Below are positions 30,519 to 63,129 of a stretch of 64,000 nucleotides of DNA, one piece after another. The position numbers and the translations under genes are program-made. Under the pieces are notes generated by a model. It had not been told where the DNA came from, searched no databases, and was given only the letters and a program-made list of their open reading frames with translations. Location of the stretch: assembly GCA_008632985.1 (NCBI GenBank), contig QPGO01000079.1, positions 186,001-250,000 of the forward strand. Direction: 5' to 3'. The stretch comes from Psammoneis japonica (Eukaryota). Each line of letters opens with the position of its first letter. Within the stretch, counting starts at the first letter, position 1.

Positions 30519-30996
30519 GGTTGCTGTATGATGTGCGCTCTATCGAGCGACTTCGTACCTCATACCGACCGACCGCCGCCCGTACCGGTACATACTGGAC
30601 TCTGCACAGTGAGTCTATGCGTCGACCGTTTTCGCGCGCCTCCCCTCGCACGAACGTCGATCCACGATGAGACGAATAAAATGCGAACAGCGACCATAAT
30701 GAGGAAAACGTCTTCGTTGGTGATCTTGACGTGTGATTGTGGCAAAGGAACCGCAATATGTTGATCCGGACAAGGTCGATTCGGGCCTTGTTGAAACATG
30801 ACAGTGGCACAGCAAGGTGCAAGATTGTCCCCACAACAACAAGTCCAAAGGTTCTCGGTGTTCAACCCGAACCCTCCACCCGGAAGTGCCGCGAATCAAG
30901 CGGAAGTGAGATGAGAGTTCGCGATTATTGTGAATACCGAGTCGCATATTTTTGCAATTGCAATTAGAGCGTGGCTCCATGAAACTCGGATGAGAC

Positions 30997-32226: not shown

Positions 32227-35200
32227 GCTGCTCAGTTTTATAGTGTTTAACACCTAAGTAAAGCAAGTTCACATCAACAACACATGCTGAGAGAATGTCA
32301 GAGGACGGTTGCATGCTGATGTTTCGAATGCGAAAGCATTGTGTGAATGCTGTGGGAACAGCGAAGAGCCGTCCGCAGTGGACAACCTTCATGATGATTT
32401 TTGCAGATGTGAGTGCGGGGACAACAGGAAGGAAATGGAAGAGGGGGGCTCAGCTGTTGGAGAATGTGAGTTGGCTTGGCTGGCTGACATCATTGCAGCA
32501 TGCATGTGTTGGATGGAGAATGTCTTGGCTTGTTTTGATGACACCAAGCATGGGGGGTGTTGGCAGGGATGGTGACTTCATTGCATTTGACAAGGTCTGG
32601 ACAAAGGGCGATGTTGCAAAGTGACCAGATGAGTTCCAGCAAAGAGTGGATGAGCTGGTTGCATCCAGCTGTCTCAAATTCATGGCCAAAGTCTGGGGCA
32701 GTGACAAGGACAATGGAGCAAGAATCCACAAGCATGTCTCTCAGCATGGTGCAAGGGCAAGGCTTTTCCCAATTTGGATGTGGAGCTGTGTTGGTGGTCA
32801 GAAGATGACAATCTCTTCTTCTGCATGGTGCACATGAAAGCAAGCCAGCAACTGAAGGATCTTGGCAAGGAAAGCATGCACACTGAAGCTTGCTTCAAGG
32901 CAACTCCATTTGGGGGGTGATGAAATGACTGGCGGTGTTGACGGTGAGATTGAAAAGTCAGAAAAGATGCAAATGGACAGTCTGCTTCATCAAAAGCATG
33001 CAAGAGCATTGTGCAAGGTGAGAACCACACCAGATGCACTCCTGGTGCTTGAAGAGGCTCCAGATGATGCAACAGAGGCTGAAAAGGAATTGGAAAAGAA
33101 GAAGCCAAAAAACAAGAGCCAAAACAACAGCAAATCTCATTTGTCATTAGAGTGACCAAGTTTTGTTGGGAGGCACCAATCCAGGTTTGTCTGAAAGAGT
33201 TGTGCAACAAACATGGACTCGCTTGGCTTTGCTTCACAGTGTGCCACAATGATGAATTCTCAACTCTGCTGGAGATCTTCCAAGAATGTGATCTGAGTTG
33301 AAAGCTTGTGAAACATGTGGTGTCATGAAACTTCACAGATCAGCCTCCGGAATTGATGGGAGATGCATCTTGGTGGCAAGTGGTGCAAGAAGATGTGTGC
33401 TGTGCACCAAGTTGGGTGTGTTGGTGTTGCAACTGGGCACACACTCCTGGCAGTGTGCAATGCCAAAATGTGAAAGCTCAGCAAGGCCAGCACCTGGCAG
33501 ATGCAGCAGAGCTGACCAAAGAGGGGAAATTGGATTCATTCACAGCACACTTGCAGACCATTTTCTGAGAGGACACAAACCAGCCAGCCACAAGCTCAAA
33601 AGAATGACTGAGTGCAAAACACTTTGGCAGGTGAGAGGTGAGCCCAGCCACCAGTTGTGTGAGAAAACACTTGGAGTGCTTTGAGTGCACCCTCTGTGCA
33701 TGAGAGAAAGAGTCAAAATGCTTTGTCCAGAGTTGATCGACATGTGGCAAGCAACAAAGCTTCTCCGTGGCAACCTGCAACACAAACAACAGCTTAAACT
33801 TTGGTGCTTGCAGGCACAAAACAAAGTTTCACAGGTCCACGGAAGACATGTCTGGCATGAAAAGCACCTGAGCTGATGTGAGCAGTGTGCCCAAAAGAGG
33901 CTGCAGCAGCAAAGATGGAGGAGCAGATGGAGACACTCCAAATGAGAGATGTCTTTTCATCTGAGGTGAGAAACGCGCATGCAGAGGTGAGACATTTTGT
34001 CTGTCCTTCTTTTGTCAACATGCTTTCCATGAGAGCAAATCTGGCTGGACTTTCTCCAAATCTTTTTTTTCTTCTTTCCTTGGATCTGTTCATTTTGACA
34101 TGCCAGGAGTTGTTGTTCTCATTGCTTGCGGCTGTGCTGCTTTTCTCATTTGTCCTCGGTGGTGATCTTTGGCTGGCAAAAAAAGGCCCAGCTGGGGCCT
34201 GCAAATGCAAGAGTGGAGCTGGCTTTGCCAGCACACTGACTGCACTTCTCCAAAACAAATCCAGGCTGGACAGCAAGGGCTGGAGGGTGGGAGAGGTGGG
34301 AGCATTTGAACTGTCGTCAGGAACAGGCACTTGCTGTTGTTCTTCCCAAAAGAATGAGAGCAGAAGCCAGTGCTGACATGCATTTTGGGTTTGCCAATCA
34401 AACCAGGTTTCATCTTCAAACAATGGTTGAGTTGCATCATCAACGCATGGCAATGTGCATGCACAGTGGCAATGGAAACCATCATCTGGCCTGACCTCCT
34501 CCTTGATCCACACATCAGGGATCAGCCAAGCACAGCTTCTGCCCCAGGCAATGCATGCAAGAAGCACATGATTCCTGAAGGACACACCTGCACTCTTCAA
34601 ACCACCACACCTGCATCTGGTCTGAACTCTGGGCCCAGAGTTGCAGTTGTCTTCTCACTGTTGGGTGCAGTGATGCAAGCATTTTTAATGTCTGCTGCCT
34701 TGACCTCCAAGTCATTTGGAGTGGCCAGAGTGAAGGCAATTCTTGCACTCTTGTGTGATGCAATGCTTGTGCAGCATCATGCATTGTCAAGCAGCAGAAG
34801 AAATTGTGCATGTTCACAATCACATGATGTCATGTGTGTCAATCGTGTCACAGTCGTGGATGCATGCAAAGGACAGATTAATCACACAGATGTGATTGAA
34901 TGTCAAAAATTGCAAATGCAATTGGACAATGATGATGACACATGAGATGTCAATGTTGATCACATCCGGACAATCTGTTGTCATGATCTAATTCTCTGTA
35001 AGGCCTTCAGTTTGCAGACACAGCACAAAAGCTTTGGGCCATGAAGAACTCCTTCAGAGAAACCCCAAATCTCAGAACACAATCCAATCTCATAATTTTC
35101 CACTTTTCATGATTCATTCTACTTCTGTTCACAATTGTTCTTCAAGCATGGTGCACTTGCATGTGTTGAGGTCACTGGAGGTTCAATCGTGTGCCCCCCA

Positions 35201-35229
35201 GCTGTGCAGTGTGCCCCTTTGCACCCAAA

Positions 35230-38200
35230 ATCCTGCAGCTTGATGTCAAACACCAAGTGACTTGATGTGCTGGTGTCCCACCAGTTGTTCATTGTTGTCA
35301 ATTGTCTTGAATGCCTTCCAAACAATGGACATCTCCTTGTTTGTGGAGTCTTGCCACAGGCAATTGCCACTTGCCTTGTCAATGTTGACTGCTTCACAGC
35401 AATTCTTGTGAATGCACACCCCACACTTGTGGGTGCATTTTAAGGCACAGGGAACCCACCATGCAGAAGTGGGTTCATCTTCAATTGATCAATGTCTGGC
35501 ATGCTGCTCCACCAGCTCAGCGGGATTCAATTCCTTGAAGTTGCCAGATGTTCCCAGGTGGTGGCACCATCTTTCCATCAAACACCAAGATGCCAGCCCT
35601 TGGTTGTCTTGCACATGGTGCTGCATCCCCTGCTTTCCTGGGTGAAGGTGTCCTCCTTCTGGACTGTGTGTTCATTGGTCTTGTGGCCTGCAATGGCATC
35701 CAGCAACAGGTGCTGGTTGCCTTCATTGTTGCACTGGGCAAGCACATTCTTGGCTGTGACATTTGCTGCAAATTCAGCCTCCTGCCCATCAGAGAATTTG
35801 ACCTTGCACACACAGGTGTCCAGGGACAGATTGGGCTTGCTTGACCTGTTGGTGTTCCATCTGCATTGAGCTTGCATCTCTTGACTGTCCCAGTTTGCTG
35901 TGTGTCCCTATGAGGCAGCAGCACTTCTGAGTTTGCACATGCATTGAAGGCTGCATCCAGGATGTCATCCTCATTTGGAGCACTGGATGGAACATCCTGT
36001 TCCTTGTCATCTTTGCACAGATCAAAAGTGGGGGTTGCAGCATCTGGATCATCTGTGTCCCTGACTGTCATGCCGGGACCAAGCTTGGCCTCCATCAATT
36101 CTTCAAACTTTTCATGCTGTGCTTTCACGCAATGCTTGGCGATTCTCTTGGTGGCATTCTTCTGTGGTCAAGGGTTGACAGGTTGAACATTAGACAACCT
36201 GTCCATTGTCTTCAAGTGTCTCAGCCATCATGGCTGGACCCACATTCCAGCTGGGACCAAGGTGTCACCCTGGGACCTCCTTGTCTTTGGGGAACAAGGC
36301 TGCCATGTCAATGAACATAACCCAGTCATGATGCCAGCCAAAATCACACATGTGCAAAATGTCAACTCTCTGTCCTGACACAGCAGTTTTGCCATCCAGT
36401 TTGAAAATGTTGTGGACAGTGTTGGATCAAACAAGAGCCTCAAGTTAAAGGCAATCATTCCAAATTCATTTCAGGGCTCGTGTCTCAATCATCTTGCACC
36501 CTGCAGCACCATGCTTCAACTCACAAATGGTGCCCTCAGCAGCATTGGACCAAAGAATGCAGGTTCAGTTTGTCTGATGTGACAGTCAGCCTCCCTGACT
36601 TTCTTGTTGAATCACCATGTCATGGCATCTGTTCTTTTGCCCATCCACTGTCATCAACAATGCTTTGTGCACCAAGGGGCAAGCACGTGCCCAGCCATTG
36701 GACATTCCAAAGACTTGGGCACATGTGTTGCCTCATCTGGACCTGATGGCAGAAAACATTGTGTCAAAGCACATCTCCTTTGTGACACACCTGCATCTAA
36801 GTTGGCCGTCATTGGCTCCAAAGTTGCGCGACAGCAACAGATGCAAAAGACTGCATGAACATCATGCAGAGCAGTGACCTCAACAGCATTTTCAACATCC
36901 TTCAAGCTGATGGACCAGTTCTTGGCAAAACATTCAGCACCCACTTGAAGTTCCCGCTTTGTTGTTGTGAGCAAAGAAAGATTCATTGAAGCAAGAAGCA
37001 CATGGTTGTTGTGTGCATTTGAAATGTCCCACAATGGCTGGCTCCCCAGACAATTTGATGTGCAAGAGCTTCATGCTCATGATTTGGATCTCTGAGGACA
37101 TGCATCATCCCCAGCCTTGTGCATGCAGCCAAGGGGATCTGTCATGAAATCCTCCCTGGCTTGGTGGTCTGATGACTGTGGGGGGATTTGTGGGCAAGGT
37201 CATGCACCAAGCCATCTTGCACAGTGGCTTTGCACTCAGAAGCAGCAGGTTTTATCATCGGGAAACAGCTGGATGAGAGTTGGTCCTTGTCTGTGTTGGA
37301 GAGTGTTGCCACATGTGACATGCTGTCAGGCTTTGTCATCAGGAATTTTGGTTTCAGGTTGATTCCCACATCATTTGGCTGCAGTTGCATTGGGCACAAG
37401 AGGTTGTGTGCCAGGTGCGGAATGTGGTCTGCCTGGTGCACAACCAAGATGTGTTGATGTCTCACAGCAGGATGATCTGCACACACCACGGCACTGCCAA
37501 TGGTGTGCAAGCTTTTGCCAGTGCCCAGGTCAGGAGGATCACATCCTATGACATCTGCAAGATGATCATGGTTGAGTGATGTTAAAGTGTGTTCAACCAG
37601 TGCTTTCACTTCTGCACGACTGTCAATCTCAGTCTGAAATTTTTTTGTGTTGCACCCCCAACATGGGCATTTGCATGAGGCACAAGGTCTGAAGTGGGCT
37701 GAGGTGCACAGCCTTGGAGGAGGAGAACCATCATTCATTCTTCCAGTGTGGCTTTGGATGGCTTGTCCTTGGGTTTGTGCCCACAAGCATTGTGCAGGGA
37801 CTCAAGCTTTTTCTCAGCCTGTGGTGACATCTTGCCACACTCCTTTGGAGGTGGCACTTGTCCTCTGCGTCATCAGCATGAATGACACTGCACTTGCATT
37901 TGCCAGTCTGCAAGGCAGCAATGCAAGTCTCTTGCTCTCACTGTCAGGCTTGGACTGGCTGCTTGATAAAATCCTCGAACAGGGCTGCACAAGCTTCAAA
38001 GTTGCTGCGCAGCATCATGCTGCCACAATTTGTGTCTTGACTGAGCCAAGGAAAGCATTGTTGACACTCTCCAGAAGGTGGAGCACCTTGAAGTGGTCAT
38101 CAATTCTGGCACAGCTGCACTCCTTGAGGCCTTCAAGGATCATGTGCTGTTTGACATGAGCGCTGTTTGACATGAGCACACACACAGCACTCGAAATTCC

Positions 38201-38995
38201 AGTTGTGGCATTTGCCACAGCAGGAGAGCAATGCCAAGCACTTTTCAGCAGTGTTGTCCATGTTGTCCATGTCACCATGCCCCAAAAAATGGTTGCAGAG
38301 GTTCGCGCAGGTGGTCCTGCTGTCCTGAGCTCTTTGGGCCTTCTTGACACAAGCCCAACATGAGTGTTCCCATGTGATGCCTGAAACAACCTCCCAGACC
38401 TTGACATTGTTGGCAGCAAAGGTTTTGGCAAGCTGAGGATTGTCCCCAGCAGCAAAGTGTGGGGCACATGCTCCAATCTCCATGCACACATTGGTGCAGT
38501 TTGTAGAGTCATCTTGGGCTTCCAGAACCAAGCACACAAGTGGCATCTTGGTTTCACTGTGACAAGCCCACAGGTGCTCATGGATTGACTCTGTGGTCTT
38601 AAGCCAATCCTTCTCAATGATTGTTTGTGGGACTTCAGGGTGATTCTCATGGGCCCCTTCAGCAGCATGGAGGTGACGGGGCATCCCCAAATGCAGTTCA
38701 GTGTGACATCGGCGGCACAGAGAGGAGTGCAAGAAGAGATCCTTTTGCAGTGGTGTGCACCACAAAGGTGGCAAGCTTGAGATTCATCTCAGCATGGAGG
38801 GAGATGGCAGTCCCCAAGTTTGGCTGTGGGCTCTGCCCACCTTCTGTCACACCTCCTGGATGGCATGCAACCTTTTTGAACAAGATCTTGACCTCATGAT
38901 TGTCAAGGCGACTCTCAGTTTGTTGACAATGTTGATTCCCTGGCTGGCAGTCAAGACTGTAGATGCTTTGTTCTAGAAGCCAAGCCTGCAGCATG
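35230..38995 (-). mobile_element. Degenerate Ty1/copia LTR retrotransposon (diatom CoDi-type): gag, protease, integrase and region preceding RT
   Basis: gag NWNFECCVCAHVKQ...LEGLKECSCARIDDHFKV; protease TEIDSRA...HNLLCPMQL; LDTCVCKVKFSDGQEAEFAANVTAKN..AQCNNEGNQ and KTTKGWHL. No LTR pair found. Confidence 0.8.
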
Positions 38996-39695
38996 CGTTG
39001 CTGCTGTGGTTGATGGTGACAGATGTGACTGCACTTCTGTTCTCACAAATTGTGTGGAGTGTGGATGTGACAGAAAAGTGAGAGAAGTGCATGATTTTCA
39101 CATCACTTTTTTTTGTCATTGCATGTGCACCCGGCAGTTCATGTGATCAACTTGTCTGAGGTTGTCATTCCACACATTCTGTGCTTGTGCTGGTCCAAAA
39201 CACATGTGCAGTGGGGACTGGAATGACTGCCCTCACATTGACACTCTTGGTCAAATGCCACCAGTCCCATCATGAGACATCATTCTCCCAAGGTCCACCT
39301 GACCATCTGTGAGTTTTGGACACAATGTGTTCAATTGCATGGCATGCACACATTCCCACATGGACATGTGTGCGGCTGCTCAGATTTCAAATTGCTCGTG
39401 CATTTGCCACCGAGACAACTTCGGGGTGGAAATGGCATCCCAAACATCAGCTGAGCTCTGCACTCGTGCAGGTGTGCCATGAAACACATCAGAATCATCG
39501 CGTCGACAAGCAACAAAAACAGCATCACTCATCTGTGCAAAGAGAGCAGGAATGACAACATGTGCCAAAACAACCAACATGACTGTTGCTGTTGCTGCTG
39601 CCATTTCTGCTGTTGAGATTGCTTTCTGTTTACAATGGCTCCAAAGAGGATTGCAGCAGTGGATGCAAGTGGTGAAGAGAGCAAAGCAATGTCAA

Positions 39696-40194
39696 CCCTT
39701 CAACCACCGGACTTGAGCAAATCTCCATGGGTGGAAATTTGCTCGCTTGCATCACAAATGCAGAGCAAATGAAGTAATTTCAGATGCACACAATGTTTTG
39801 TTCACGCGATTTTGTTCTGGAACGCGCATTCGCTGAAAATCTGGAGGCACCCTTTTTGCAATTTAGAAAGTTCAATGTCGACTTTTAACACTGGGTTTTT
39901 TGCAAGCTTCATCTGTGAACAGAGAGGAACTAAATCTCAACCTTCAACAATGAAGGTTGTCATGAATTGCCATCACAAATGGAGCAACAATGCCACATCC
40001 TGGGAGCAAATCTCCGCCGGTGGAGATTTGCTCCCAACAAGTAAATGCACGTGGCACACTTTACCTGGATTGCACACAATGTGACATTTCTTGCTGTGTT
40101 CATCACATTGTCACAAAAGTGCATGACACGTCACACATCCTTGAGCAGAGCAAATCTCCATGGGTGGAGATTTGCTCCCCTGGTGGTTGAAGGG
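39696..40194. mobile_element. piggyBac-like MITE, 499 bp, with 13-bp TIRs and a mutated TTAA target site
   Basis: TIRs CCCTTCAACCACC (39696-39708) and GGTGGTTGAAGGG (40182-40194). Flanks TCAA (39692-95) and TTGA (40195-98). Three internal GAGCAAATCTCC..GGA(G/A)ATTTGCTC palindromes. Confidence 0.75.
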
Positions 40195-40238
40195 TTGAGC
40201 AACGATGAAGAGTCCGTACATGGATTCACGGGCATGGG

Positions 40239-40321
40239 GTGCGATGCTTGATCAACAGTGACGAGCGCAAAATGTTGGGCTTCAAGTTGCTTGAGGATGG
40301 CGACAAATGCACAATTGGTCC

Positions 40322-40354
<33 letters not shown>

Positions 40355-41804
40355 AATGGTGGACAAGAGGACAGCAGAGGAAATGATCGAATCTTTGGTT
40401 GTCAAGCATCAAATTCTGGAGAACAAGGGACGACCAAAACGAACTCTTTCGCACATGACAAAGAGTCATGCTTTCTCATTTGCCGTCACAAAAGAACGGG
40501 TCACTTTGGGGCACAACTTCTTTTTCCCATTGCTGTCGGAGAGCAGCGCGGCAATCACTGCAGCTTTCAAGATGGATGGACCTGCATCTGCCCTCAACAA
40601 GAACAAGTGTCACCACCCCTGCTTCCTCTCGGAAACCAAGAAACTCATTGATGTGGTGCAGTTGGCAAACATTGCCATTTGACAACAGCTTTTCTGGACA
40701 AAAGGTGGGCACTGGCTCAAGTTGGATGATGGCATTTCCTCCGGCACAGAACCAGATGTTTCGACGGTTGATTGTGCGCCAGACAAAGGCGAGCCATTGG
40801 TGGCGTCCGCTGATTGAGTGAGGCTTCCTTTGACCAAGCACAACATGGCAATGGCTTTTGAACAAAAGAAAAGCTTCTTGGAGACTGATCAAATCAAATT
40901 TGTTGAGCAGGCAAGAGGCTTTTGTGCACACAACGGGGATGGCGGACAGCTTTTGTGGCCTTGTTTCACTGCTGTGGGGGCGAAAAATACATTCAATGGG
41001 CAAAGACAACTGACATGGATGGACAATTTGTGATGCAGACAACCAAAGCAGCATCCTTGATGCCTGGCGAAGATGGGCAACACCAGCTTCTCACAATGTC
41101 ATCCAAGACGTCCAGGCAGCTGGGACGAGATTTTCCTTCCTGTGGTGGTGACGCAATGCAAGTTTCAGAGAAACCAGATGTTTTGTGTCAGGTTGGCAAG
41201 GGGGCAACATCTGCTGTTTGTTGTGCAAAGCTCAGGGAAACAGAAGGAGTTGCGAAAGTTATGAAAAGTAGATTCAAGCATCCAGCAGCACATGAGAAGG
41301 GCACTCTTGACCAGTCAGAGAGGAAAGGAGTCCCTGGTTTGTCGGAAAGCACCTTGGTGATGAACGGTGTCCTCTTTTTCAATTCCTTGCTGCAGCCGTT
41401 TGAAGGAACTTTCACAGTCGAACAAGTTGGTGATTCTGCAGACTTCATGGCTCAGTTTCAGATTGGGGTTTTGCCCTGATTCACAATTCTTTGAATTCAA
41501 GCCCTCCAAATTTAGAAGGCACTTTTTGCCATGCAAGCAAAGATGTCTTGAATGCTGCCATTCACGCGGAAACACACAGCCCCATCCAAAAGATGATCTG
41601 GAGTTGTTTCTCAAGACCGTGCCAGCCGTCAATTCTGGGGGGCACCGACTGTGGAAAAGATTGTCTGAAACAGAGCAAGGTGATTTTGTTGTGGCCCAAG
41701 ACATCTGGAGAGAAGAAAAGGAACAACACTTGAACTCTTTCCTCTCAATGTTTGAAGCAGCAGCATCTGCCAATTGCGAAGCACTCAAGCAGTTAATTCA
41801 TTGA
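40239..41804 (+). pseudogene. Degenerate protein-kinase gene (Crinkler/FunK1-like architecture)
   Basis: QVGKGATSAVCCAK...GVAKVMK (Gly loop and VAK) and PHPKDDLELF; broken by stops and frameshifts; polyQ near the start. Confidence 0.5.
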
Positions 41805-44800
41805 TCTTTGAGTGCGACACATCTGTGGTGCTTTTTGTGGTCATGGTCATGGGTCTTCTTCTCTTGGCCAGCAGCTCCTTGTTCTTCCTCCAATCTTGAA
41901 AAGCATGGGCCAGAATGTTGAGGCATTTACACTTTTCTCATCTTCTCCTCCACAAGCTTTTTGAACCTCAGTTTCTCCCTGTTGGTCCACTTGCGCCTTT
42001 TGCACTCAACAGGGGTTCCAAGGGGCTGTTCCTCATTGTCTGAAGGGTTGCATTCACACAAATCAGTCTCCTCCATGGTCCATTGTTTGTCCATTTGAGT
42101 GGAACTGAGATGGAGCGGTTCCAAGCACTCCTTGCATTTTCAAATCGAAGCACGTTAAAATGGAAGTTTTCCAGGGGCAATGAGCACCCGGAAAACTTTG
42201 ATTTTGGATTTTTCAACTTGGTTTTTCACCACCCCCAAACAGGAGGGTTCTTGTGTCAGTTGCTTCAGGTGCAGTGCAGTGCTTGGTTGATTGCATGCAA
42301 TGGCTCACATTGTCTGCACAGGCAGGCAGAGCGCTTGCATGCTTGCAACATGGGTGACCAGATCTTCTTGGTTTTCCGAGAACCTCCCTGCACCGCCGCA
42401 ACTCTGCCCACCATCAAGCCATTTTGTCATCTTTGCAAGCTGCCGCCAGTGTGGCCAACAACAGAGGAGCGCCCTTTGAAGTCACTTCTCCCTCATCTTG
42501 CGCAAGACAATCATGCCGCCAGAGAAGAAGAGCCACAAGAAGAAGCAGCGCCAGCCTGAAAAAGAGCAAACCCAAAGGCAAGTGGCTTGCCAGAAGCAAA
42601 AGAGAGAGTTGACACATGGCAGCTGCTGCCATGAGCTCTTTGGAGTTGTGCAAACAAGTCCTCAACAAGGCCCAGCAGTTGATGGGCAAGTGCCGCTGCA
42701 GGAAACAACAACTGGCTGTGCTGCAAAATGGGGGGATGTTTCTGGCAACTCGCAGTCTGTCTGGGTTTTGCTGTGCAAATGAGCCAACCGGCAATGTGCG
42801 GGCAAGTTGGTGAGCAGCATTTTTTTCAGCCTGTCCAGAGAAGTTTGAGTTCTGCCAACATGACAGCAGGTTAGCAGGAACATCAACTTTGCTCAAAGAA
42901 TCAGTCCACAGAGATGAAAAAAGGAGCTGCTTCTTCTGCAGCAACAAAAGGGTGCACCAATTCCAAGTGAGAAAAAGAAAGAATGAATTTCAGATGGAAA
43001 GATTTGTGAAAAACGTCATGTCGCCACAAGAGTCCTGACAAGCAACTGTGCAACAATCATTGAAAGACAAAATGTCCTCCCTTGGCCCTTGAAGTGCACC
43101 GGTGCTTCCCACCTGCCAGCACTTGCCACAAAAGAGAAAGGACAAACCTTGCTCTCACAGTTGGTGCAAGGCAATGACACTCTGCTTTTGTTAAGAACAT
43201 TCACAACAAGGGCACACAACCTTTGGATTTTCACTCAGGCACTGAAAAGCATGATGAAAAGGACAGGCAGCGGAGCACACAATCTGGCATCTTGGATGCA
43301 TGCATCAAGGAGGGGGTGGATGGCAAATGCAAAGTGTTTGTGACAGCAGGGTGCAGTGGCAACACAAGTTTCACTTCAATGATGACTCACATTGGAGTGG
43401 AATCATGTTTTGCACAACAGCTCCCTTTGAGCTGATCACAGCTCAAATCAAGCACAACCAACATGGTCAATCCACAGAGCTTTTTGAGGATGCTGCCAAC
43501 CATGGCTCTTTGACAGCATGCATGCCACCAAAGAGCAAAAGCCAAAAGAAGCAGCGCCAGCCTGAAAAAGAGCAAATCAAAAGGCAGTCAATGATGGCCC
43601 ATGCTTTGATGGACACATTGCCAAGCAAGGCCACCTGTGTCATTGGAAAGAATGGGGCTGTGTGTGACATCATCTAGAGCAGCACTTTGTGCATTTCAGA
43701 GGAGCCTTTGTTCCAGCTGGTGACTCCCTCTCTCATCTCCAGGGAGGGATCTGACAGCTGTGATGACCCTGACAGGACACTGCAGCCACCTCTGTTCACA
43801 GACAATGTGACAGAGTTGCTGCTGCAACCTGAGTGGAGACAGAGACAGAACTGGGTTGTGATCGATGCAATCACAAAAAGTTCTTGGTGACACAAGATTT
43901 AAAAATCAAATTGCTCTTCATTGCATGGAAACCAAAATGACGCCAATGCACTGCTCAAATCACAGCCAGCACATTCAATCCACAGAGCTTGTCATGGATG
44001 CCACTGACCATGGCATTTTTGTGCAGATCAAGGCACCCCAATCACACCATGGCAAGCCCACTGTTCCCACAACACACTTTGTCATGGACAGTCATTGAGA
44101 GCCCTTGCCTCATTGCACAGCTTTCCATGCACCAACAGTTGCACAAGGTTCATGCCAAAGCTCAAATTGCTTCTTTGAAGAACTGCACTGGCACACTTGT
44201 GGAGCATGTCAGCTGCCCCCCTGTCTTGACAACCAAGGGAGTGGAACATCACCAGCTCTCCAGTTGATTTGTTCACAGAAACCCTCCAAGAGCTCAGTTG
44301 CTTGCCTGAAGTTTTGCCACACAGCACAGCAAATTAGCTCCAGCAAATCTGCTTGCTGCGGGAGATGAGACAATTGTCCACAATTAAGTTGTCACAGTTC
44401 ATGATGCAGGTGCACCCACAGCATCTTCTTGCAGCATGATGCTGAGTTGCCCACGTGTTGCTTTCAGGGGGGAGACAAACAATGAATGAGAAATTTGGCA
44501 CAAACGCTCTCACAAGAGCTGCTGCAATCACTCCTTGATTTGCCAAATCTCACCACAACTCAACAGCTTGCAAAAGCCAGCCAGTTCTTCTCAAACCAGC
44601 GCTGCAATGTTTTCATGTGGATCTTGTGGGAATGGCCTGCACCTCTGCTTTCCAAGGAAGAGGGAGAGTGCAGTCACAACAGTCTGTCAGGTGAAAACAG
44701 CATCCATGAGCCGCGGTGTTTGTGTGGTGAGATTTGGGTTCTGAGCAGCAAAATGGTTTGACAGTGCACAGAGTTGTTGCTGCAAAGGGGGCTCTGCACA

Positions 44801-44984
44801 AGCTCATTTCCAGGGCACTGGAAGAATGAGTTGTGATGTTCTCCACATGCCACAAACACATCTCATGTGATGAAGATGAGACACACAAGCACATCACCCA
44901 ACTCATTTTTCAAAAACTGCACACAGCACCCCTCGGTGTCCTTCACATGGCCAAATGTTTGTGCAGAGGCCCCTGATCAGGGGT

Positions 44985-45683
44985 GGACAAGACATGTGTT
45001 TTGCTCATCATGCACTGGCTCTTCCATCTTTGGGAGGACAGCTGACAAGGACGACATTGATCAAGCCTCTGGCTCAGCCTGCTGGTGGCCACTTCTCTCC
45101 CATGTGTCAGTCCAGGACTTTTGTGACCAAACAAGTTGCACAGGAAATTGTCAGGGGCAAACCAAGATGAGGCACCAAGACAGCGTTTGTCCTTTGGAAT
45201 GCAGCAAAGCTGCCACCCAAACAAATGATTGGCAGACAGAGCATTTGATGCCATGTGGTTTCACCACCAATGGTGACAGTGTGCAGCTCAACATTGCCAC
45301 AGGATTGCAGCATGTCTTTTGTGGTGGCAAGTGCTTGGGAGCAGAGGCAAAGAGGCCCCTTTTTGGTGTGACAGATGTGACAACAATGTCTTGTGCACTT
45401 GCAGGGATGCCAATGTGCAAGTGGCACGGCCTTGCAAATTCAATGATTTAGAGTGCTGATGTCCAGCTGCAAAGACCTGTCTTGACTGCATTCAATCTGA
45501 GGCAGAAGCTTGTGACAATGAATTGCCAAACAAGACTTGCAGCTCTGGGAGTGCCAGCAGTTTGGAAAAAAAGGCTGTTTGAGAGTCATTGCTCTGTCAC
45601 CCACTCCTTTGAGCCCAAGTGCAGAGCCAACAAAATCCCCAACACCACTGCTCATGACCAGGCCCACTCAAACCAATGGACAG

Positions 45684-45725
<42 letters not shown>

Positions 45726-46620
45726 CCTCTGACTGTGTCTCCAATGTTGCCAGCACAGGCAATGGCATTTCCAAGCACAGCGGGGCCACAAGTGTTGGCA
45801 CAAGCAGTGTGTCACCCAGCGCACCAACTCCAATGAGCAGCAATCCCATCAATGCCTTTGTGGGTTGGATGCCAGTTCTGTGGGCAGGGCTGCTGCAGAG
45901 GCGGCTTGCTCTTGTTGCAATTGGGTGGCTGCTGCAGTGGTGTAGATCACTGCCATCCTTTGGGCTGCTCAATTTTACAGTGTTTGACACCTGGGCAAAG
46001 TGGGTTCACATCAACAACGCACGCTGAGAGAATGTCAGAAGACACTTGCGTGCTGATGTTTTGAACACAAAAGCACCATGCAAATGACACAGGAACAGCA
46101 AAGAGCTGGCAGCAGCAGACAACCTTCATGCTGATTTTTTAGATGTCAGTGCAGGAGGGACAACAAGAAGGAAATGAAGGAGGGGCTCAGCTGTTGGAGA
46201 ATGTGAGTTGCTTTGGCTGGCTGACCTCATTGCAGCACCCACAAGTTGGAGAATGTCTTTTGGCTTGTTTTGATGATGCCAAGGATTGGGGGGTGTTGGC
46301 AGGGATGGTGACTTCATTGCATTGGACAAGGTCTGGACAAAGATGTTGCAAAGGGAGCAGATGAGTTCAGCTTGCTGCACCCACCCAGCTGTCTCAAATT
46401 CATGGCCAAAATCTGGGGCAGCAACAAGGATGAGATCATGGAACAAAAAGAATCCACAAGCATGTCTCTCAGCATGGTTCAAGGGCAAGGCTTCCCCCCC
46501 ACTTGGATGTGGGGCTGCTGTGTTGGTCAGAGTGCAACAATCTTTTCTTTTGCATGGTGCACATGAAAACAAGCAAGCAGCTGAAGTGTCATTTTGGCAA
46601 GAAAAGCACGTGCACAGTGC
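44985..46620 (+). pseudogene. Hypermutated paralog of 30988-32885 (mucin-like gene plus 3' flank), with (AAC)n run at ~45685-45725
   Basis: Alignable by eye along its length; only one PTS repeat unit; frameshifts and stops. Confidence 0.9.
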
Positions 46621-47865
46621 AAAGACTCCCTGATCTTTGTCAAATCATTCTTGCCAAATCAAGTTTCCTTTCAAGTGGTGCACATTGAAGGAAATCAACA
46701 AGAAAGTGCAGTGCATTGTGAAAAAAAGTGAAACAAGATGGCCAGATCTGAGCCAATCAGATGTCAAAGGCCCCTGCTCAGGGGCAGGGTCTGAGCCCAC
46801 AGGCACTGCACAAAACAGTCCAGAATCATGCCAACCAAAGAAAAGTCAAGAATTGTTTGCATGTGCATGTTGACATTTTTCAGCTTTAGAAACTTGAGAT
46901 TCAGTCACAAAAATGACTCAAATCAGCAGCACACTCACACTTCAATGACAAGAGTGTGCAACATCTTTTGCTGCATCAACACCACACTGTTGCAGCAAAA
47001 TGGAGCAAACGTCACTCAGCTGAGAGCTGCTGTTGCCTTCCAGTGCATGTCAGGGAACATCACAAGCTGGCCAACAACTGCAATCTGGTGCTGTGTCAGC
47101 TGTGAGGGAATGTGAAGCTTGAGCCAAGGACACAAAGAACTTGTTTTGTTGTGTTTGCCTGTCACAGAGTTGCAATCACCACAGCTCACACAAAAGGAAC
47201 ACCGGGTCTTCTTGAAATCACTTGGCAACAATGGACACATGTGTGCACAAGGCAATGTCAGGTGTGGCCTCTGTGTGCCAGCTGTGCAGCATGCTTGCCA
47301 AAGCAATGAAGCAAAACAAAATGGTGATGCAAGAAGCATGTCCAAACACTGGAGCAACAAGAGAAAACATCTTGAAGACACAAGACTCAGCAACTTTGTG
47401 AGGTCACAGAAGGAGCTGCAGACAAGCAGCAGACCATGCAAGAAAGCATGACATGCCTTGCCCACTTGCAATGCCCAAAAGCTGCTGCCATTGCACCCTG
47501 GACTGGCACAGGTTTGGTGCCCACTTCAGAGACAGCTGTGTGCAAGGTCATCTTCCCAGGAAGAGTCATGATTTGTTCAATCAAATTTTAATCTCATTGG
47601 ACCCACAGAAGCTCATTGCAGTCCCCACTGTGAATGAAAAAGCCATTTCATGGCCACAGCTGCCAAAACACATCAAAGCTGAATCATTTTTGAATCGAGA
47701 CATGACAAGCCTCGTGTCGCGTGGCAGCACAAGACAATGCACAGGAATGCATGGCTGTTGTGAAACACCATGTAGTTGCCAATTCTTCAATCTGCAACTT
47801 GTGAGTCAGATTCTCCTCAAAGTCCAGAACCAAAAGTGTGAGTCCCATTCATTTAAAAGCGTTGG

Positions 47866-49011
47866 TCAGTTGGGATTGGCCTTGGCTCCCAGCAATGCAG
47901 CAACAGCCTTGAGCGCACGTCCGCTGAAGTCAAAAAGACTGCACCGTGGCACCTCACTCCACTCTTGTGCCAAAAACCACTTTTCGGGCTGCGTCCAATG
48001 GGGTCCCCAACAAAACAAAGCAGTGCAATTCATCCTCATCTGAAGCATCATTGTTAAATTGTGAAGGCAGTCACACTGGCCTTGTTCTGTCAGGGGGCAA
48101 GGGCACTTCTTACTGCATTCATCATCCTCATCTTCAGCGCAATCTCTTTCGTCACCTTTCCAACAGCAGGCTGTTTCCACTGCCCACACATCGAGTTGGG
48201 GGAAAAGTGTGGACAAATTGTTGATGTTGTCCTCGAGGTCTTGGATGGATCCATGCCACATTGGACAGCAGGAAAGGCCAATCACATCAACGACTCCACC
48301 TCGGTTGAGACATTCACGGAACCATTTCTTGCACTCCATTTTGTTGCCGCCTTCATTGAGATGAGTGACAATCTTGGGACGCTTCTTGGGAGGGTCCATG
48401 TCTTTGACAACATCATTGACCGCATCCACACCACTTTGCACCAATGGCATGAATTTGTCCCAATGATCAGGCAAACAAGCCATTTCCCACAGCATCCCAA
48501 CAAAGATCTCGTTCCCAATTTGGACGGCATCAGGCATTGTGTCTTGATCCTTGAGCGCTTGCATGAACTCCTTGGTGTGATTGTAGACATGATTCCACAG
48601 TGCCTCTAATGAAGGCTGTGTTCCGTTGCTGCCGCCCACCCGCCACGACAACGGGGTCCATTGATTTTCCCCGTCGGCCCACCAATGAGAACAATGAAAA
48701 TCTGAGAGGAACTTGAACCCGCATTCGTGCTTGATTTGCTTCGCAAAGTCCAACACATGCGCAAGATTCTGGTTGAGACCATGTCTTCCATCCGGCTTGA
48801 CCATGACTTGAAGTCGTGCACAATCGCAGTCCTCAAAGAACTTTGGCACACGCGAAATTCGTCCACAAAAATCCTTGTAGACCACACCGGAATGTTCAGC
48901 CACCATGGCCTCCAAGCCGTCAAATCCAACCCAAAAGTCTTGCTTCGGCACACCAGTGTGGACTGTTGTTGCAACAACAGGCACAAGTGACACCATCAGT
49001 GTGAGGATCAT
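47866..49011 (-). pseudogene. GH53 endo-beta-1,4-galactanase; frame open but Tyr->Cys/His mutated
   Basis: DFHCSHWWAD, PDAVQIGNEI..GMLW, DVIGLSCCP.WHG, VETACCW and LFCW correspond to GH53 DFHYS.WAD, VQ.GNE, D.IG.SYYP.WHG, ETAY and FYW. Confidence 0.8.
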
Positions 49012-51598
49012 CGGCTTCGATTCTGTTGCGGATGTTCAAATGGAGCAGTAATTTCGAAGGGAGAATCCATGACAAATTCTCAACGTTCTTCATCTTGGTC
49101 TGCATGAGAGTCCATCTCGTGGTCCGTTGGTTGCAGGATGCTGCGTTCAGTCAGGTCTTGGGTCTCCTCTCCTTTCTCCATCAGTCTTGCATTTCGCCAA
49201 CAAAGCACCCTCAAATCAGGACATGCACTCACACTTCGATTTGTCACGATGATTGTGGCAGGCACTGCCCCAATAAAAGGTTTGGTGCAACAGCAGTGGA
49301 AGCAAGCAAATGACCAGCGAGTCTGGTGAAAGTGAGTGTGGTTGAGTGTTTTTTGTGCTTTGGTGAATGACACAGCCCCTCTGCATTTCTTGTTTCAATT
49401 TTTCCCAACCTTTCTCGTAGACCTCAGTTCAAAGTTGCACCAGAAGAAAGGCCAAAAGCCGGTCAAGCCACTCTTTTTATTGTCTCACAGCATTTGACAT
49501 CGTGTCAACTGCTCCCACAATTACACACGTGTCACTTGATCGATTGGGCCTTTTTCTGATCGTGATTCGAATGTCTTCCACAAATGATGTACAGCACATT
49601 TTCTTTCAGTGGATGATTTTGGAGCTTTGAGCAAATCTACGAGTGATGGCCTTTGCAGCCTGCAGTTAATTCCACTGTACGACAACCATGCTCACCGTTC
49701 ACCGAGGCCACAGGTGACAGCAACCCACTCTCCATCGTGAGTCTGTGCGTCGACCACAGACTCTCATGATGGAGAGTGACAGCAACCCCATGAGCAAAGC
49801 TGCCAGTGGCTGAGCACAACAATTCATTGCAGTCATTCATTTGCCTTGAACTCTTCCTTCCAAAACTCTGGACATTCTGGATCTATTTTGCACATTGCTT
49901 GCCTTCCCAAGAACAGCAGTTGGCAAACTTTTGATGCCCAGCTCAAACTTCCTTTGACCAGTTTTGGGTGCACTGCCATGGTTGCTTCCAGCTTCCTTGT
50001 CGAGATCTGGAGCTGGTGGTGGTGTGCACACACCCAAAATTGTCAGAAAGCTGACTGCAGTCTTCTGAGCAGCACTGACACAGCTGCTCTCATGCTGTGA
50101 TGATGCTTCTCCCTTCTTGTTGCCCGCTTCTCATGCAGAGCCATCAAAACACCCGCTCTGCCTTCTCTTGTCTCAGGTCAAAAGAGAGGAAGTCAGCTGG
50201 GTTGCCACCCACAAGGGCTGTTTTCTTGAAATGCTCAGTGAGCCACTTTTTTCTGGTTGAAGTGGACAAAGAAGAAAGCACGCCGGCCGGTGAGAAAGAC
50301 AAGGACTTGAGACACACAATGGTGCAATGAACTCAGCAGCACTTTGCACGACATTGGTGGTGCATGAGCTTCAACAGCAGAGGTGACGCAGAGTGTGGCC
50401 GACAAAAAGAAGCCATCCAGCACACAGAAGCAGGGCACTTGGCTGTTGTTGTGCTGAACAGCTCTTGGCCCCAGAGTTCAACAACAGTGCAGCAAAACAA
50501 AAAATTGCACAGCTGTGTTTCAACTTTCAAAAGAGTGTCTTGTTCTCTGTTGCTGGTTTTTTGAGAGCAGGGGCAGACATGTCCCAGCCGCACGTGAACC
50601 AAATCATGCACAAAAATGACTTTGCATGATTTTCGTGCAGTCTCGCTGATTTGCAACCTGGCTTTCTCCACCAAAAGCACAGATTTGTCCAAATTTGAAT
50701 GTTTTGAAACACTGACAAGACTTGCATCAGTGTTGTAATGTCATTGTTTTTGTGTGCAATGTGTGTTTTTTGTTGCGATGAATGAATCATGACACAACGG
50801 ATGATTTTCGGCGAAACCATTGCCGTCATTTTGATGTCAAATGTCAACATGAGCGATGTTTCTGCAATGCTGTCTTGCATGGGTTCCACCTGCAGACAAA
50901 TCTCTGCACACAGTGCACTGTTGCACAATCAGCATTGAGTCCACTGAGGAAGTTCACGATGCATGTCCCACAGGGACTTGCACGCCAACGAAAAAACCAG
51001 CTGAATGTCCTTGCTCTGCACACCTGCTGCATGAAAGCACATCCACTTGAGTGGTTGATGTGAAAATGCTCCACACACGAGAGACACATGGTTTGTGTTC
51101 AAAATTGATTGTCGTTTTGTGCATCACCTGGGACTGGAGCACGCCGGCAAAAGTGGACTGGCACTTGGATGACGCCGCTGCTGTGGGTTGGAGATGTTCT
51201 TTTCTCTTTTTTCAAAGCGCACGCATGAGAGCAAAGTGGTGATTGCCACAGGAGTTTGTTGTGCACAGCTGCTAGAGGCACAGTCAGCACAAAACACGTC
51301 CCCGACAGTTGGCTGAAGATTTGTGAGAGGCAAAGAAAATTATTTGACCACCCCACAAGAAGGCATGAGCAACTCGAGCTCTTCTACAAAGGAGCTCGCG
51401 CACAAAGCATGCCAAAAATTTTTGGCGCGGCAGCATATCATGCACTGACGAATGACCGACCATTCAAAAATAACAAAAGAGCACAAAAGAGCAACAACAA
51501 CAGTCAGAGAAAATAGGGCCCTAGTAGAGAAGAACAAGAAAGTGTTTGCTATCGACACACACACAACGTTACATACCATGACTTGTTGTCCCTAAAAT

Positions 51599-57975: not shown

Positions 57976-58139
57976 TCCTGTTAAATTGAACACGAAGTTA
58001 ATCATGCACATGTTTGTCGCATTCCGACATGATTTGGTTTGCCCTAAGAAAACCCGCGAAATTGTCTGCGTGAGCCAACCCACAGTGCAAATTCTACTTA
58101 GGCAGCTCACCTCTAGACGGTGGATAAAAGTGTTCGGGA

Positions 58140-62679: not shown

Positions 62680-63129
62680 TGATGATTAACTATTGTTCGA
62701 TCGTGTGCATATTTTTATGAGCAACTAGAGAGTCGTACGAATGAAAATGTTCGAAACGAGAAGCCAAGAAGCAATCGTGAGCGAGCGATGAATCCCCTCT
62801 CTAGCGATTCCGTTTATTTCACATTTTGCGACTTGCTGCATGGCAGTTCCTTTGAAATCTCTAATACTATCAGATAGAAATAGACATATATCAGCCAGAA
62901 TCAAGCAGAGCCAAGCAGCAAAGCAATACGATATCTTGGCTTTGTCTTTCTTGTCTCCTCAAGAGCTCAAGACTCAAGATTGACGGGCTGACGGGGGTGC
63001 GCGCGTCTCTCACAAAAAACATGATGGCAGCGGCGCGCCCTCCGCGCATGTCTCGGCTCCAGTTGACGCAGTTTTCTTTCTTTTCTCAACCGAGGCCATT
63101 TTTTTGTTTGACAAGGAACCCTTGTGAGG

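Follow-up and report, generated by a model that had tools for sequence, protein, structure and literature searches.

The question raised by this locus is what kind of process could remove nearly every TA dinucleotide from some stretches of a diatom genome while the genes beside them keep theirs. In the window, that is, the whole 64-kb stretch of DNA that was analysed, four blocks amounting to ~24 kb (24,143 nt) carry 3.2 TA and 13.3 CG per kb, compared to 35.5 and 60.5 per kb in the genes that flank them. An earlier note had placed four TA-poor blocks here next to genes with normal TA, and counting bears this out for all four: per kb, the blocks hold 0–10 TA (observed/expected, o/e, 0.00–0.17) and 2–33 CG, and the flanks 24–58 TA (o/e 0.38–0.81) and 47–95 CG, with normal TA also in the intergenic DNA between flank genes. 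Its finer figures hold as well: the two or so TAs given for positions 1–1555 are exactly two (the next lie at 1558 and 1586), and the absence of TA from 62940–64000 extends across 62933–64000. Altogether, 77 TAs are observed in the blocks where flank density predicts 857 (Poisson 3e-260), which is a loss of 91%, or an 11-fold fall in TpA. The reported flood of TG and CA is equally real (o/e 1.4–2.4 in the blocks versus ~1.0–1.4 in the flanks), but the blocks are poor in CpG as well as TpA, with 78% of CG gone, so that the TG/CA excess has two sources. Relative to the flanks, a loss of 79.5 TA and CG per kb is met by a gain of 77.9 TG and CA per kb, and hence the books balance; base composition is unchanged (GC = 0.49 in blocks and flanks alike). 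Trinucleotide density ratios of blocks to flanks are 0.03 for TAT, 0.06 for TAC, 0.11 for TAG and 0.21 for TAA. The blocks are gene-free islands that consist of dead genes along with degenerate repeats, and in them nearly every TA and most CG have become TG or CA.

The first block (1..1555) is cut by the left end of the window and retains TA at 0.04 and CG at 0.12 of flank density. The main block, 19 kb between two genes (32260..51340), retains 0.04–0.21 of TA and 0.09–0.55 of CG depending on the sub-block, and contigs from a public sequencing run (X1, ~67x single-copy word depth) agree with its sequence. A third block between two genes (58130..60895; TA left 0.085, CG left 0.15) has a purine/pyrimidine period-3 signal at 59.2–59.8 kb, which suggests former coding DNA. 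The last (62933..64000), cut by the right end of the window, has 0 TA in 1068 nt and keeps 44% of CG density. Before the main block lies an intact gene on the forward strand (30994..32226; a 410-aa ORF without a Pfam family) with normal TA and CG densities, covered from 30893 to 32231 by contigs of another run, X2. Mutated DNA downstream of this gene (32263..32885, forward strand) is homologous to 46000–46619, and a hypermutated pseudogene copy of the gene itself occupies 44990..46000 on the same strand. Three further segments of the main block are repeats by depth: 33584..35575 at ~7–30 copies (X1 word depth 482–2042 versus ~67 for single copy), 39560..40223 at ~80 copies (depth 5528), which has decayed less than its surroundings (TA 12.0/kb, CG 21.1/kb), and 42216..42879 at ~3–4 copies (depth 245). 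Finally, the reverse strand of 47869..49035 holds a hypermutated pseudogene of GH53, endo-beta-1,4-galactanase (Pfam PF07745, 188 bits). This is the one solid Pfam match among 261 ORFs of at least 60 aa inside the blocks or at their edges, and the earlier description of the blocks as DNA of transposable elements (TEs) is not shown at the protein level.

At the level of sequence, the direction of change, from TA to TG or CA, is demonstrated twice. When the intact gene at 30994–32226 is taken as the reference for its copy at 44990–46000 (974 aligned nt), the 33 TAs of the gene appear in the copy as 18 TG, 10 CA and 3 other dinucleotides, with 2 kept; of its 52 CGs none is kept, 29 being CA, 22 TG and 1 other. 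Transitions make up 28/31 of the changed TAs and transversions 3/31, and over the whole 974 nt there are 158 transitions to 26 transversions. Nucleotide identity of the pair is ~80%, compared to 94–96% in purine/pyrimidine code. The background includes C-to-T transitions at 6–7% of CpC and CpT sites, and TG has flipped to CA or the reverse at 16/162 positions. The second line of evidence comes from outgroup proteins. At ten columns where GH53 proteins conserve tyrosine, the pseudogene keeps one and has cysteine (TGY) at seven and histidine (CAY) at two, whereas conserved tryptophan (13/14), proline (8/8) and histidine (6/6) are kept. The conserved start methionine is now ACA and there is damage outside TA and CG, and, with TAA and TAG unable to arise, the reading frame has stayed open. 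The internal paralogue and the outgroup proteins thus back the earlier proposal that TA becomes TG or CA through A-to-G change on either strand.

The TA change follows a defined motif: on either strand, it falls on the A of 5'-T-A-Y-3'. In the paralogue pair, 15/19 A's in TAC have become G, as have 8/17 in TAT, 4/15 in TAG and 2/15 in TAA; the rate is 29/66 after a 5' T and 0.06–0.13 after other bases (A 15/119, C 21/161, G 7/123). Although these rates rest on a single 974-nt pair, block-wide statistics agree with them. The 77 surviving TAs are distributed as 37 YTAR, 19 YTAY, 17 RTAR and 4 RTAY, which differs from the 193, 390, 340 and 460 found in the flanks (p 1.3e-15). Outcomes follow the same logic of context, with YTAY going to TG by 9:1 and RTAR to CA by 4:0 (p 0.005), while the outcomes of CG are context-blind (p 1.0) and its loss is fastest at TCG with a mild 5' bias (T>A>C>G). 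Changes in the paralogue pair do not fall in strand-coordinated runs (runs test P 0.29 and 0.39), and the mark expected of a processive deaminase working on single strands is accordingly absent, although many rounds of mutation would also wipe out such runs. Seen from the opposite strand, A-to-G at T-A-Y is T-to-C at R-T-A, and adenine is therefore not singled out by sequence as the base attacked.

The borders of the blocks indicate what is targeted. Refined on TA, they lie at ~1556, 32260, 51273–51341, 58126–58248, 60815–60897 and 62933, and beside genes they are sharp to tens of bases. At the left edge of the main block, the last TA stands at 32259, 33 nt past the stop codon of the ORF, and CG continues to 32416; at the right-hand block, TA stops at 62932. 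CG in general continues 60–160 nt deeper into the blocks than TA, which makes TA loss the spatially wider of the two, and in 62960–64000 TA is zero while 44% of CG density remains. TA is lost faster than CpG, and the two losses can in part be separated. Homology between the two gene copies, including 32263–32885 against 46000–46619, continues unbroken from one composition into the other; the border thus marks where mutation ends, with no insertion junction there. The earlier note had taken the process to be targeted to repeats, and this part of it is not supported. Depth in most of the main block is close to that of single-copy DNA (the majority of its bins match the flanks), and the paralogue at 30994–32226 is untouched while its copy is saturated. 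Other copies of the repeated segments have been largely spared: TA is retained at 34649 and 34718, CG or TA at 39834, 39892, 40065 and 40067, and TAC at 42317 in 81% of depth where the window has CAC, such copies making up 81–92% of read depth over the seven sites listed. The sparing of the intact paralogue and of most other repeat copies points to a domain, not repetition as such, as the target, and since TA loss reaches 60–160 nt nearer the genes and ends within tens of bases, the domain would be one of chromatin.

One of the nearest known parallels is repeat-induced point mutation (RIP) in ascomycete fungi (RID/DIM-2), in that transition-only hypermutation destroys silent or repeated DNA together with the genes caught inside it, leaving sharp-edged islands of skewed dinucleotides next to normal genes. 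The blocks share this trait, with 158 transitions to 26 transversions in islands with sharp borders. However, RIP makes TpA from CpA by C-to-T change and lowers GC, whereas here TpA is erased by A:T-to-G:C change at unaltered GC. Moreover, RIP hits all copies of a duplication, while the block is mostly near single copy and both the intact paralogue and most repeat copies have escaped. RIP also requires a RID/DNMT4-type enzyme and operates ahead of meiosis. Decay of CpG driven by 5-methylcytosine would account for the conversion of CG to TG or CA on both strands, but it cannot remove TpA, the loss of which is faster, more complete and wider than that of CG and is uncoupled from it in 62960–64000. 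It is rejected as the whole explanation, and the earlier argument that neither CpG decay nor RIP explains the TA change is upheld. TCG hypermutation of TEs in basidiomycetes bears a likeness to the blocks, where TCG is the CpG context lost fastest. The TA change is an A:T-to-G:C mutation made by no described genome-defence process, and literature searches for such a TA-erasing process found no description of one. Methylation of TEs in diatoms, and a RID-related methyltransferase, DNMT4, of unknown function in 31/60 diatom species, are described in the sections of PMC9998398 that concern them; a 2022 review, in the portion that deals with RIP, calls it the sole known case in which methylation's mutagenicity is exploited and speculates on its existence outside fungi (PMC9246332). 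In 2923 one-kb windows of environmental contigs around relatives of one flank gene no similar block was found, and the process may be lineage-restricted or such DNA may be unassembled there.

A further parallel is offered by the wobble-adenosine deaminases of tRNA. ADAT and TadA naturally act on an A preceded by U (U33-A34; UAC in bacteria), which resembles T-A-Y, and the inosine that ADAT2/ADAT3, TadA and laboratory adenine base editors produce is read as G. We know of no genomic footprint of these enzymes and no role for them in genome defence. In the earlier note a TadA-like preference had been remarked on; the preference for T-A-Y fits, and the deaminase itself is an inference. The rates after a 5' T (29/66) and at TAC (15/19) and the fastest CpG loss at TCG match what such an enzyme would leave, and opposite-strand T-to-C change fits them equally well. 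Within the part of PMC10354150 devoted to DNA substrates, amphioxus ADAT2/3 deaminates C (at TCG) and A in DNA, and the trypanosome enzyme C. The TCG site of the amphioxus enzyme recalls the fastest CpG loss in the blocks, while its adenine preference, as given there for the sole natural DNA-acting ADAT2, is GAA and not TAY. The same part describes known ADAT2/3 activity on DNA as weak and on single-stranded or hairpin substrates, and natural TadA as inactive on DNA (PMC10354150).

We propose that the blocks are silent, gene-free islands of the diatom nuclear genome, consisting of degenerate repeats along with defunct gene copies, which would have undergone a heritable, domain-restricted transition hypermutation with two components. 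The first would change the A of 5'-T-A-Y-3' to G on whichever strand presents the trinucleotide, such that Y-TA-Y goes to Y-TG-Y and R-TA-R to R-CA-R, with R-TA-Y the quickest to disappear and Y-TA-R the most persistent. The second would turn CpG into TpG or CpA, favouring certain 5' neighbours only mildly (T>A>C>G) and acting more slowly than the first, which would extend 60–160 nt nearer the genes. TG and CA would be the stable end states, and ordinary transitions that remake TA or CG would be resolved again, giving TG-to-CA flips and the reverse. The second component is presumably deamination of 5-methylcytosine in methylated DNA; the first could be enzymatic deamination of adenine to hypoxanthine, read as G, by a TadA/ADAT2-type zinc deaminase recruited to silenced chromatin, whose gene would be expected to encode an HxE-PCxxC site and a chromatin-targeting part. 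The net effect would be the irreversible inactivation of whatever sits in an island. That a real, domain-targeted process turns TA into TG or CA in the DNA is very probable; the proposal as a whole, with the deaminations it includes, we consider narrowly probable, and adenine deamination as the chemistry of the TA change is our leading guess, held tentatively.

Two readings would deny that the pattern was made in this DNA at all, and both fare poorly. True TA (and perhaps CG) could have been modified and read as TG or CA, or the assembly mis-polished; the blocks are the kind of DNA that bears modifications, and X1 is possibly from the same sample as the assembly, so that it excludes base-calling error without being an independent isolate. 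Yet eight X1 contig pieces of 958–3176 nt on 32721–49469, at a uniform word depth of 64.7–76.2, differ from the window by 9 letters and 1 gap in total (9 differences in ~14 kb over the pieces listed against the main block), and exact 31-mers at such depth need accurate reads. Were adenine modified on both strands of TA, each site would read as TG from one strand and as CA from the other, a mixture that would break the assembly graph every few tens of bases and is not seen, and the GH53 copy has its lost start codon and its damage outside TA and CG. The TG/CA pattern is therefore present in accurate reads, and this reading, already largely refuted, is very unlikely. Furthermore, the single-copy differences between X1 and the window within the block are all transitions (7/7), six of which create or destroy CG or TA, while those listed over flanking genes mix transitions with transversions; this is counted as evidence that mutation of the blocks is recent or still acting. 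Slimmer again are the chances of RNA hyper-editing in the manner of ADAR, with the product then reverse-transcribed and inserted, or of foreign or viral DNA with its own TA- and CG-avoiding signature. Sharp block edges would suit either, and RNA-editing deaminases typically prefer a 5' U/T for their A-to-G changes, which in clustered form are shared with ADAR retro-copies. ADAR, however, favours a 3' G where TAG is a poor site here (4/15 versus 15/19 for TAC), and both strands are about equally changed (18 TG, 10 CA), with no strand asymmetry. Homology across the border leaves no insertion junction, and the paralogue pair and GH53 tyrosines indicate that host genes in the block began with normal TA and tyrosine codons, which contradicts an origin outside the host as well.

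The remaining alternatives accept a real mutational process and differ on its chemistry, and we regard each as unlikely. The T of 5'-R-T-A-3' could be modified in silenced chromatin, by a TET/JBP-type dioxygenase yielding 5-hydroxymethyl- or 5-formyluracil or by O4-alkylation, and mispair with G to give T-to-C change, with 5-methylcytosine at CpG as a second substrate of the same 5-methylpyrimidine chemistry. Sequence data fit this as well as they fit A-to-G at T-A-Y, and the loss of TA and CG from shared domains would follow if both 5-methylpyrimidines were substrates of a single class of enzyme. Base J and the 5-hydroxymethyluracil of dinoflagellates are said to prefer a T followed by A, and G is a mispairing partner of 5-formyluracil; 5-hydroxymethyluracil, on the other hand, is only weakly mutagenic, and a literature search found no paper on its preference for TpA in dinoflagellates. 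A shared chemistry also sits badly with the displaced borders of TA and CG, their uncoupling in 62960–64000 and their different context rules. About as improbable is an origin with no dedicated mutator, in which an error-prone polymerase in the style of Pol eta or iota misinserts G opposite T at TA steps in late-replicating or poorly repaired heterochromatin, alongside passive long-term decay of 5-methylcytosine. Errors of Pol eta fall preferentially on the A of W-A motifs, Pol iota places G opposite T, and somatic hypermutation by AID and Pol eta couples C deamination to A:T mutations, with clustered A-to-G change after W. The paralogue pair shows no small background divergence (26 transversions in 974 nt; 6–7% C-to-T at CpC and CpT), enough for a steady bias to have had time to work; CG retention varies by degrees among sub-blocks (0.09–0.55), and the frequency of TG/CA flips (16/162) is about that expected from background transitions then resolved again. 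By our own estimate, however, the rate at TA would have to be ~40-fold that of background transitions (91% TA loss versus 6–7%), and a passive process would have to end within tens of bases of genes and spare the intergenic DNA between them. A-A, a target of W-A polymerases, is barely touched (15/119), and Pol eta patches yield many transversions where changed TAs are 28/31 transitions.

To our knowledge, fungal RIP is essentially the one known case of targeted point mutation in silent DNA. Here, a photosynthetic stramenopile carries a footprint as drastic, with the opposite dinucleotide outcome, and A:T-to-G:C change at T-A-Y is unexplained by any described genome-defence or spontaneous process. 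There are practical consequences for annotation, as TA-free DNA has TGA stops only and so yields long false ORFs, dead genes such as the GH53 copy appear intact, and purine/pyrimidine recoding restores the homology and coding periodicity that hypermutation masks. If an enzyme lies behind the footprint, it would be a natural editor of DNA adenine (or thymine) with a defined trinucleotide motif and chromatin targeting, relevant to mutational biology and diatom genome evolution and as a possible scaffold for base editing. It is conceivable, if doubtful, that diatoms in general, or this lineage at the least, have a chromatin-targeted DNA adenine deaminase, maybe dual for A and C, that derives from tRNA wobble deaminases and serves as a mutational genome defence, a kind of 'anti-RIP' by which TpA, and hence every TAA or TAG stop and every tyrosine codon, would be erased from silenced DNA. 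Were this true, it would rank as the first programmed A:T-to-G:C hypermutation system from nature and as a natural editor of adenine in chromosomal DNA.

Counted per kilobase and in 200-nt bins across the window, dinucleotides set apart four blocks (1-1555, 32260-51340, about 58130-60895 and 62933-64000) that are almost devoid of TA and CG and about twice as rich in TG and CA, at a G+C of about 0.48-0.49 that is the same as in the flanks. Over 24,143 block bases and 39,003 flank bases, TA stands at 3.2 per kb in the blocks versus 35.5 in the flanks, CG at 13.3 versus 60.5, TG at 111.3 versus 74.0 and CA at 115.4 versus 74.8. The gain in TG and CA (77.9 per kb) matches the loss of TA and CG (79.5 per kb), and 77 TA are observed in the blocks where 857 would be expected (Poisson 3e-260). 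An earlier note on this DNA had counted two TA in 1-1555 and none beyond 62,940; these counts are exact, and its observation is confirmed and sharpened here.

The direction of change is shown twice, by a pair of paralogues and by outgroup proteins. An intact gene of normal composition at 30994-32226 (+) has a mutated paralogue within the main block (32260-51340), at 44990-46000 (+). Over 974 aligned bases, the 33 TA of the normal copy appear in the block copy as 18 TG, 10 CA, 2 TA and 3 other dinucleotides, and its 52 CG as 29 CA, 22 TG, 1 other and no CG. Transitions outnumber transversions by 158 to 26, and the identity of the pair, about 80% at the nucleotide level, is 94-96% after recoding into purines and pyrimidines, a code that is unaffected by transitions. 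The outgroup evidence comes from a GH53 galactanase ORF at 47869-49035 (-), the sole ORF in the blocks that Pfam recognises (188 bits), which was aligned with its 16 closest relatives (39-47% identity). Ten Tyr columns are conserved among these proteins; in the block copy one is kept, seven are Cys (TGY) and two are His (CAY), and the Tyr-to-Cys replacements are seen likewise against solved galactanases. The same copy retains 13 of 14 conserved Trp, 8 of 8 Pro and 6 of 6 His columns, has TGC (Cys) or CAA (Gln) for conserved Arg and TTG (Leu) for conserved Ser, and carries ACA at the conserved start Met. It is a pseudogene, and its frame is open only because TA-free DNA cannot form TAA or TAG. 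The description offered in the earlier note, that TpA becomes TpG or CpA by A-to-G on either strand and that this is confined to silent DNA, holds.

A base-calling artefact, which the same note had named as one finding that would overturn its reading, is rejected, as the contigs of the public sequencing run X1, possibly the sample from which the window was assembled, reproduce the block sequence at uniform depth. This run contains 89% of the sampled 31-mers of 29500-36500. Among its contigs placed on 29600-49500 at a likeness of at least 80%, eight listed pieces (958-3176 nt, word depth 64.7-76.2) span 32721-49469 and depart from the window by a total of 9 letters and 1 gap, and in most block bins the depth equals that of the flanks. 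Exact-word depth needs accurate reads, and long-read base-calling error is therefore excluded. Similarly, strand-dependent misreading of a modified base would yield both TG and CA variants at each TA site and break up the contigs, which is not seen in X1.

The TA change follows a trinucleotide motif; for the CG change there is hardly one. In the paralogue pair, with rates strand-collapsed and taken per A or per C, A-to-G change reaches 15/19 at TAC and 8/17 at TAT, with 4/15 at TAG and 2/15 at TAA; by 5' neighbour it amounts to 29/66 after T, 15/119 after A, 21/161 after C and 7/123 after G. C-to-T change is found at 51/103 in CpG, about one hit per dinucleotide, and at 18/161 in CpA, 8/114 in CpC and 6/109 in CpT. 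A rule that the A of 5'-T-A-Y-3' changes to G on either strand (Y, pyrimidine; R, purine) predicts that Y-TA-R, unfavourable on both strands, is kept and that R-TA-Y, favourable on both, becomes rare. The 77 surviving block TAs follow this prediction (37 YTAR, 19 YTAY, 17 RTAR and 4 RTAY; p 1.3e-15), compared with 193, 390, 340 and 460, respectively, among the 1383 flank TAs. Block-to-flank trinucleotide densities (TAT 0.03, TAC 0.06, TAG 0.11, TAA 0.21) agree with the rule, and the product also follows the flanking bases as predicted, Y-TA-Y giving TG by 9:1 and R-TA-R giving CA by 4:0 (Fisher p 0.005), whereas the outcome at CG is independent of context (p 1.0). Surviving block CGs are not biased toward purine or pyrimidine contexts (p 0.23), and CG loss depends modestly on the 5' base, in the order T>A>C>G (p 4e-6). 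Strand-coordinated clustering of changes in the paralogue pair was not significant (runs test P 0.29 and 0.39).

The two losses also differ at the block borders. The final TA before the main block is at 32259, 33 nt past the stop codon of the intact gene, where TA stops abruptly; on the right side TA ends at 62932. CG extends 60-160 nt deeper into the blocks (32306-32416, 58135-58183 and 62984-63091). Relative to the flanks, the density remaining in sub-blocks is 0-0.21 for TA and 0.09-0.55 for CG, and 62960-64000 has zero TA with 44% of CG density left. As such, TA loss is faster and more extensive than CG loss and cannot be put down simply to CpG decay. The border at 32260 is crossed by a segment that runs on unbroken in both duplicates (32263-32885 matches 46000-46619), and this continuous homology makes the border a limit of mutation and not an insertion junction.

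The flanks encode ordinary eukaryotic products, namely SF1 helicases, a type IA topoisomerase, an alpha/beta hydrolase and DUF6824 and DUF7640 proteins. For one helicase the best named relatives are from the diatoms Cylindrotheca, Pseudo-nitzschia, Seminavis and Cyclotella at 51-55% identity (unnamed matches reach 62%), which places the window in the nuclear genome of a diatom to which no named genome is close. Rfam and tRNA scans of the whole window returned nothing. Just outside the main block, topoisomerase IA domains (51796-53055) and a CCHC zinc-knuckle ORF (53587-54840) lie on the same strand (+) in different frames, and 51796-54840 probably represents exons of a single topoisomerase III-like gene. 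Normal-composition intergenic DNA at 17581-18005 holds a direct repeat pair of about 200 nt, spaced by 214 nt, with 86% identity over a 63-nt seed match and 92% in purine/pyrimidine code. Within the intact gene at 30994-32226, some three to four tandem 120-nt repeats of 63-93% identity (31632-32031) encode a Ser/Thr/Asn-rich stretch, and the block copy has a single matching unit at 45599-45715. One contig of a second public run, X2 (labelled 'DNA?'), lacks 85 nt at 30302-30386, delimited by CT..AC (GT..AG when read from the minus strand), like a spliced transcript; from this sequence pattern X2 looks transcript-derived, and the neighbouring minus-strand gene would have an 85-nt intron. X2 contigs lie on 29645-32231, with one short piece near 40.2-40.9 kb, and the rest of the main block is uncovered, which is not evidence of silence. 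Among named proteins, the GH53 pseudogene is closest to bacterial ones (Deinococcus, 35-38% identity), with unnamed environmental proteins at 45-47%, and the family may have reached diatoms by horizontal transfer.

The process was proposed in the earlier note to be targeted to repeats, and this is not borne out. By X1 depth, taking about 67 as single copy, the main block has three repeated segments with copy numbers of 7-30 (33584-35575), about 80 (39560-40223) and about 3.6 (42216-42879); its other bins, at depths of 64-220, lie for the most part between one and two and a half times single copy. At seven listed sites in repeat segments (34649, 34718, 39834, 39892, 40065, 40067 and 42317) where the window has TG or CA, other copies with TA or CG make up 81-92% of the depth. 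Since other copies with TA or CG predominate at these sites and the intact paralogue is spared, repetition is neither necessary nor sufficient; position within a domain counts, and the process is better called domain-targeted. A purine/pyrimidine period-3 signal, which is transition-proof, marks former coding DNA at 37.8-38.4, 45.2-45.8, 48.0 and 59.2-59.8 kb. A self-comparison of the window in the same code for hidden repeats returned nothing beyond the duplication already described and two short tandem repeats.

The block contents were further described in that note as TE and pseudogene DNA. The pseudogenes stand (GH53 and 44990-46000), and the evidence for the TE label is that of read depth, with no transposon protein recognisable in the ORFs scanned. 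Stop-to-stop ORFs of the blocks and a few at their margins were scanned with Pfam (120 of at least 90 aa and 141 of 60-89 aa); GH53 was the one solid match, four weak matches below the cut-off (E 0.004-0.009) were ignored, and none of these 261 ORFs gave a transposase, reverse transcriptase or integrase. For the ORF at 59734-60291 (-) there was no homologue, and for that at 38018-38788 (-) one marginal repetitive match (E 6e-5) and no convincing homologue. The 120 longer frames, from about 24 kb and its margins, are almost all without homologue, and they are many because TA-free DNA has TGA as its only stop. Gene callers would over-predict in such blocks.

From normal to block copy, TG has flipped to CA at 12/89 sites and CA to TG at 4/73, all located in clean alignment. 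This is approximately the frequency expected if background transitions, which for C-to-T at CpC and CpT run at 6-7% in the paralogue pair, remake TA or CG that is re-resolved half the time to the other product. The flips thus argue against a single burst and in favour of action spread over time. At single-copy block positions, X1 differs from the window at seven sites (41198, 44600, 48415, 48597, 49191, 49274 and 49336), all at full depth and all transitions, and six of them create or remove CG or TA (four CA/CG, one CG/TG and one TA/CA); the X1 and X2 differences listed over neighbouring genes are mixed transitions and transversions. The seven are likely allelic or strain variants made by the same process, which suggests that it is ongoing or recent.

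What is shown is a DNA-level, heritable, domain-restricted change of T-A-Y to T-G-Y on either strand, plus CpG to TpG or CpA. RNA editing with retro-copying and foreign DNA are both contradicted, by the homology across the border at 32260 and by the paralogue pair and the GH53 Tyr columns. UV damage does not fit, given no C-to-T excess at dipyrimidines (CpC 8/114, CpT 6/109), nor does GC-biased gene conversion, as AA/TT density and base composition are unchanged; selection against TA and CG fails because the affected sequences are dead genes.

The CpG part would result from deamination of 5mC, and diatoms are described as methylating TEs (PMC9998398). For the TA part, the reading ranked first is that a CDA-fold deaminase akin to TadA or ADAT2 turns adenine into hypoxanthine; we hold this tentatively, as a possibility short of even. 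The natural substrate of such enzymes is an A after U, and the early laboratory adenine editors derived from TadA favoured YAC. ADAT2/3 is reported to act on DNA, by C-to-U in trypanosomes and by C-to-U at TCG and A-to-I in amphioxus; against the adenine-deaminase reading, the same source describes the amphioxus enzyme as weak, favouring GAA and acting on single strands or hairpins, and natural TadA as inactive on DNA (PMC10354150). The attacked base, A or T, is not identifiable from sequence alone, and the T of R-T-A could be the one attacked, by oxidation or alkylation, with subsequent mispairing with G; this seems unlikely to us, and error-prone synthesis restricted to heterochromatin is unlikely to the same degree.

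Joint TA and CG loss blocks were absent from 80 metagenome loci round relatives of one flank gene (800,631 nt, 2923 windows), which is weak evidence, as only about the first 36 loci are from close relatives and the contigs are gene-dense; the ten low-TA windows are in contigs of 61-83% GC with normal CpG. Searches of open full texts turned up no account, for diatoms or any other organism, of repeats losing TpA to TpG/CpA, and a prior description is possible in subscription journals or any genome paper of the organism, which lie outside that scope. A 2022 review places fungal RIP mostly among ascomycetes and names no other known use of the mutagenicity of methylation (PMC9246332). The present process resembles RIP in that transition hypermutation ruins the contents of silent islands. 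However, TpA drops here and rises in RIP, the main change here runs from A:T to G:C, and duplication does not set it off. We regard the phenomenon as a variant within the mutational decay or defence of silenced DNA.
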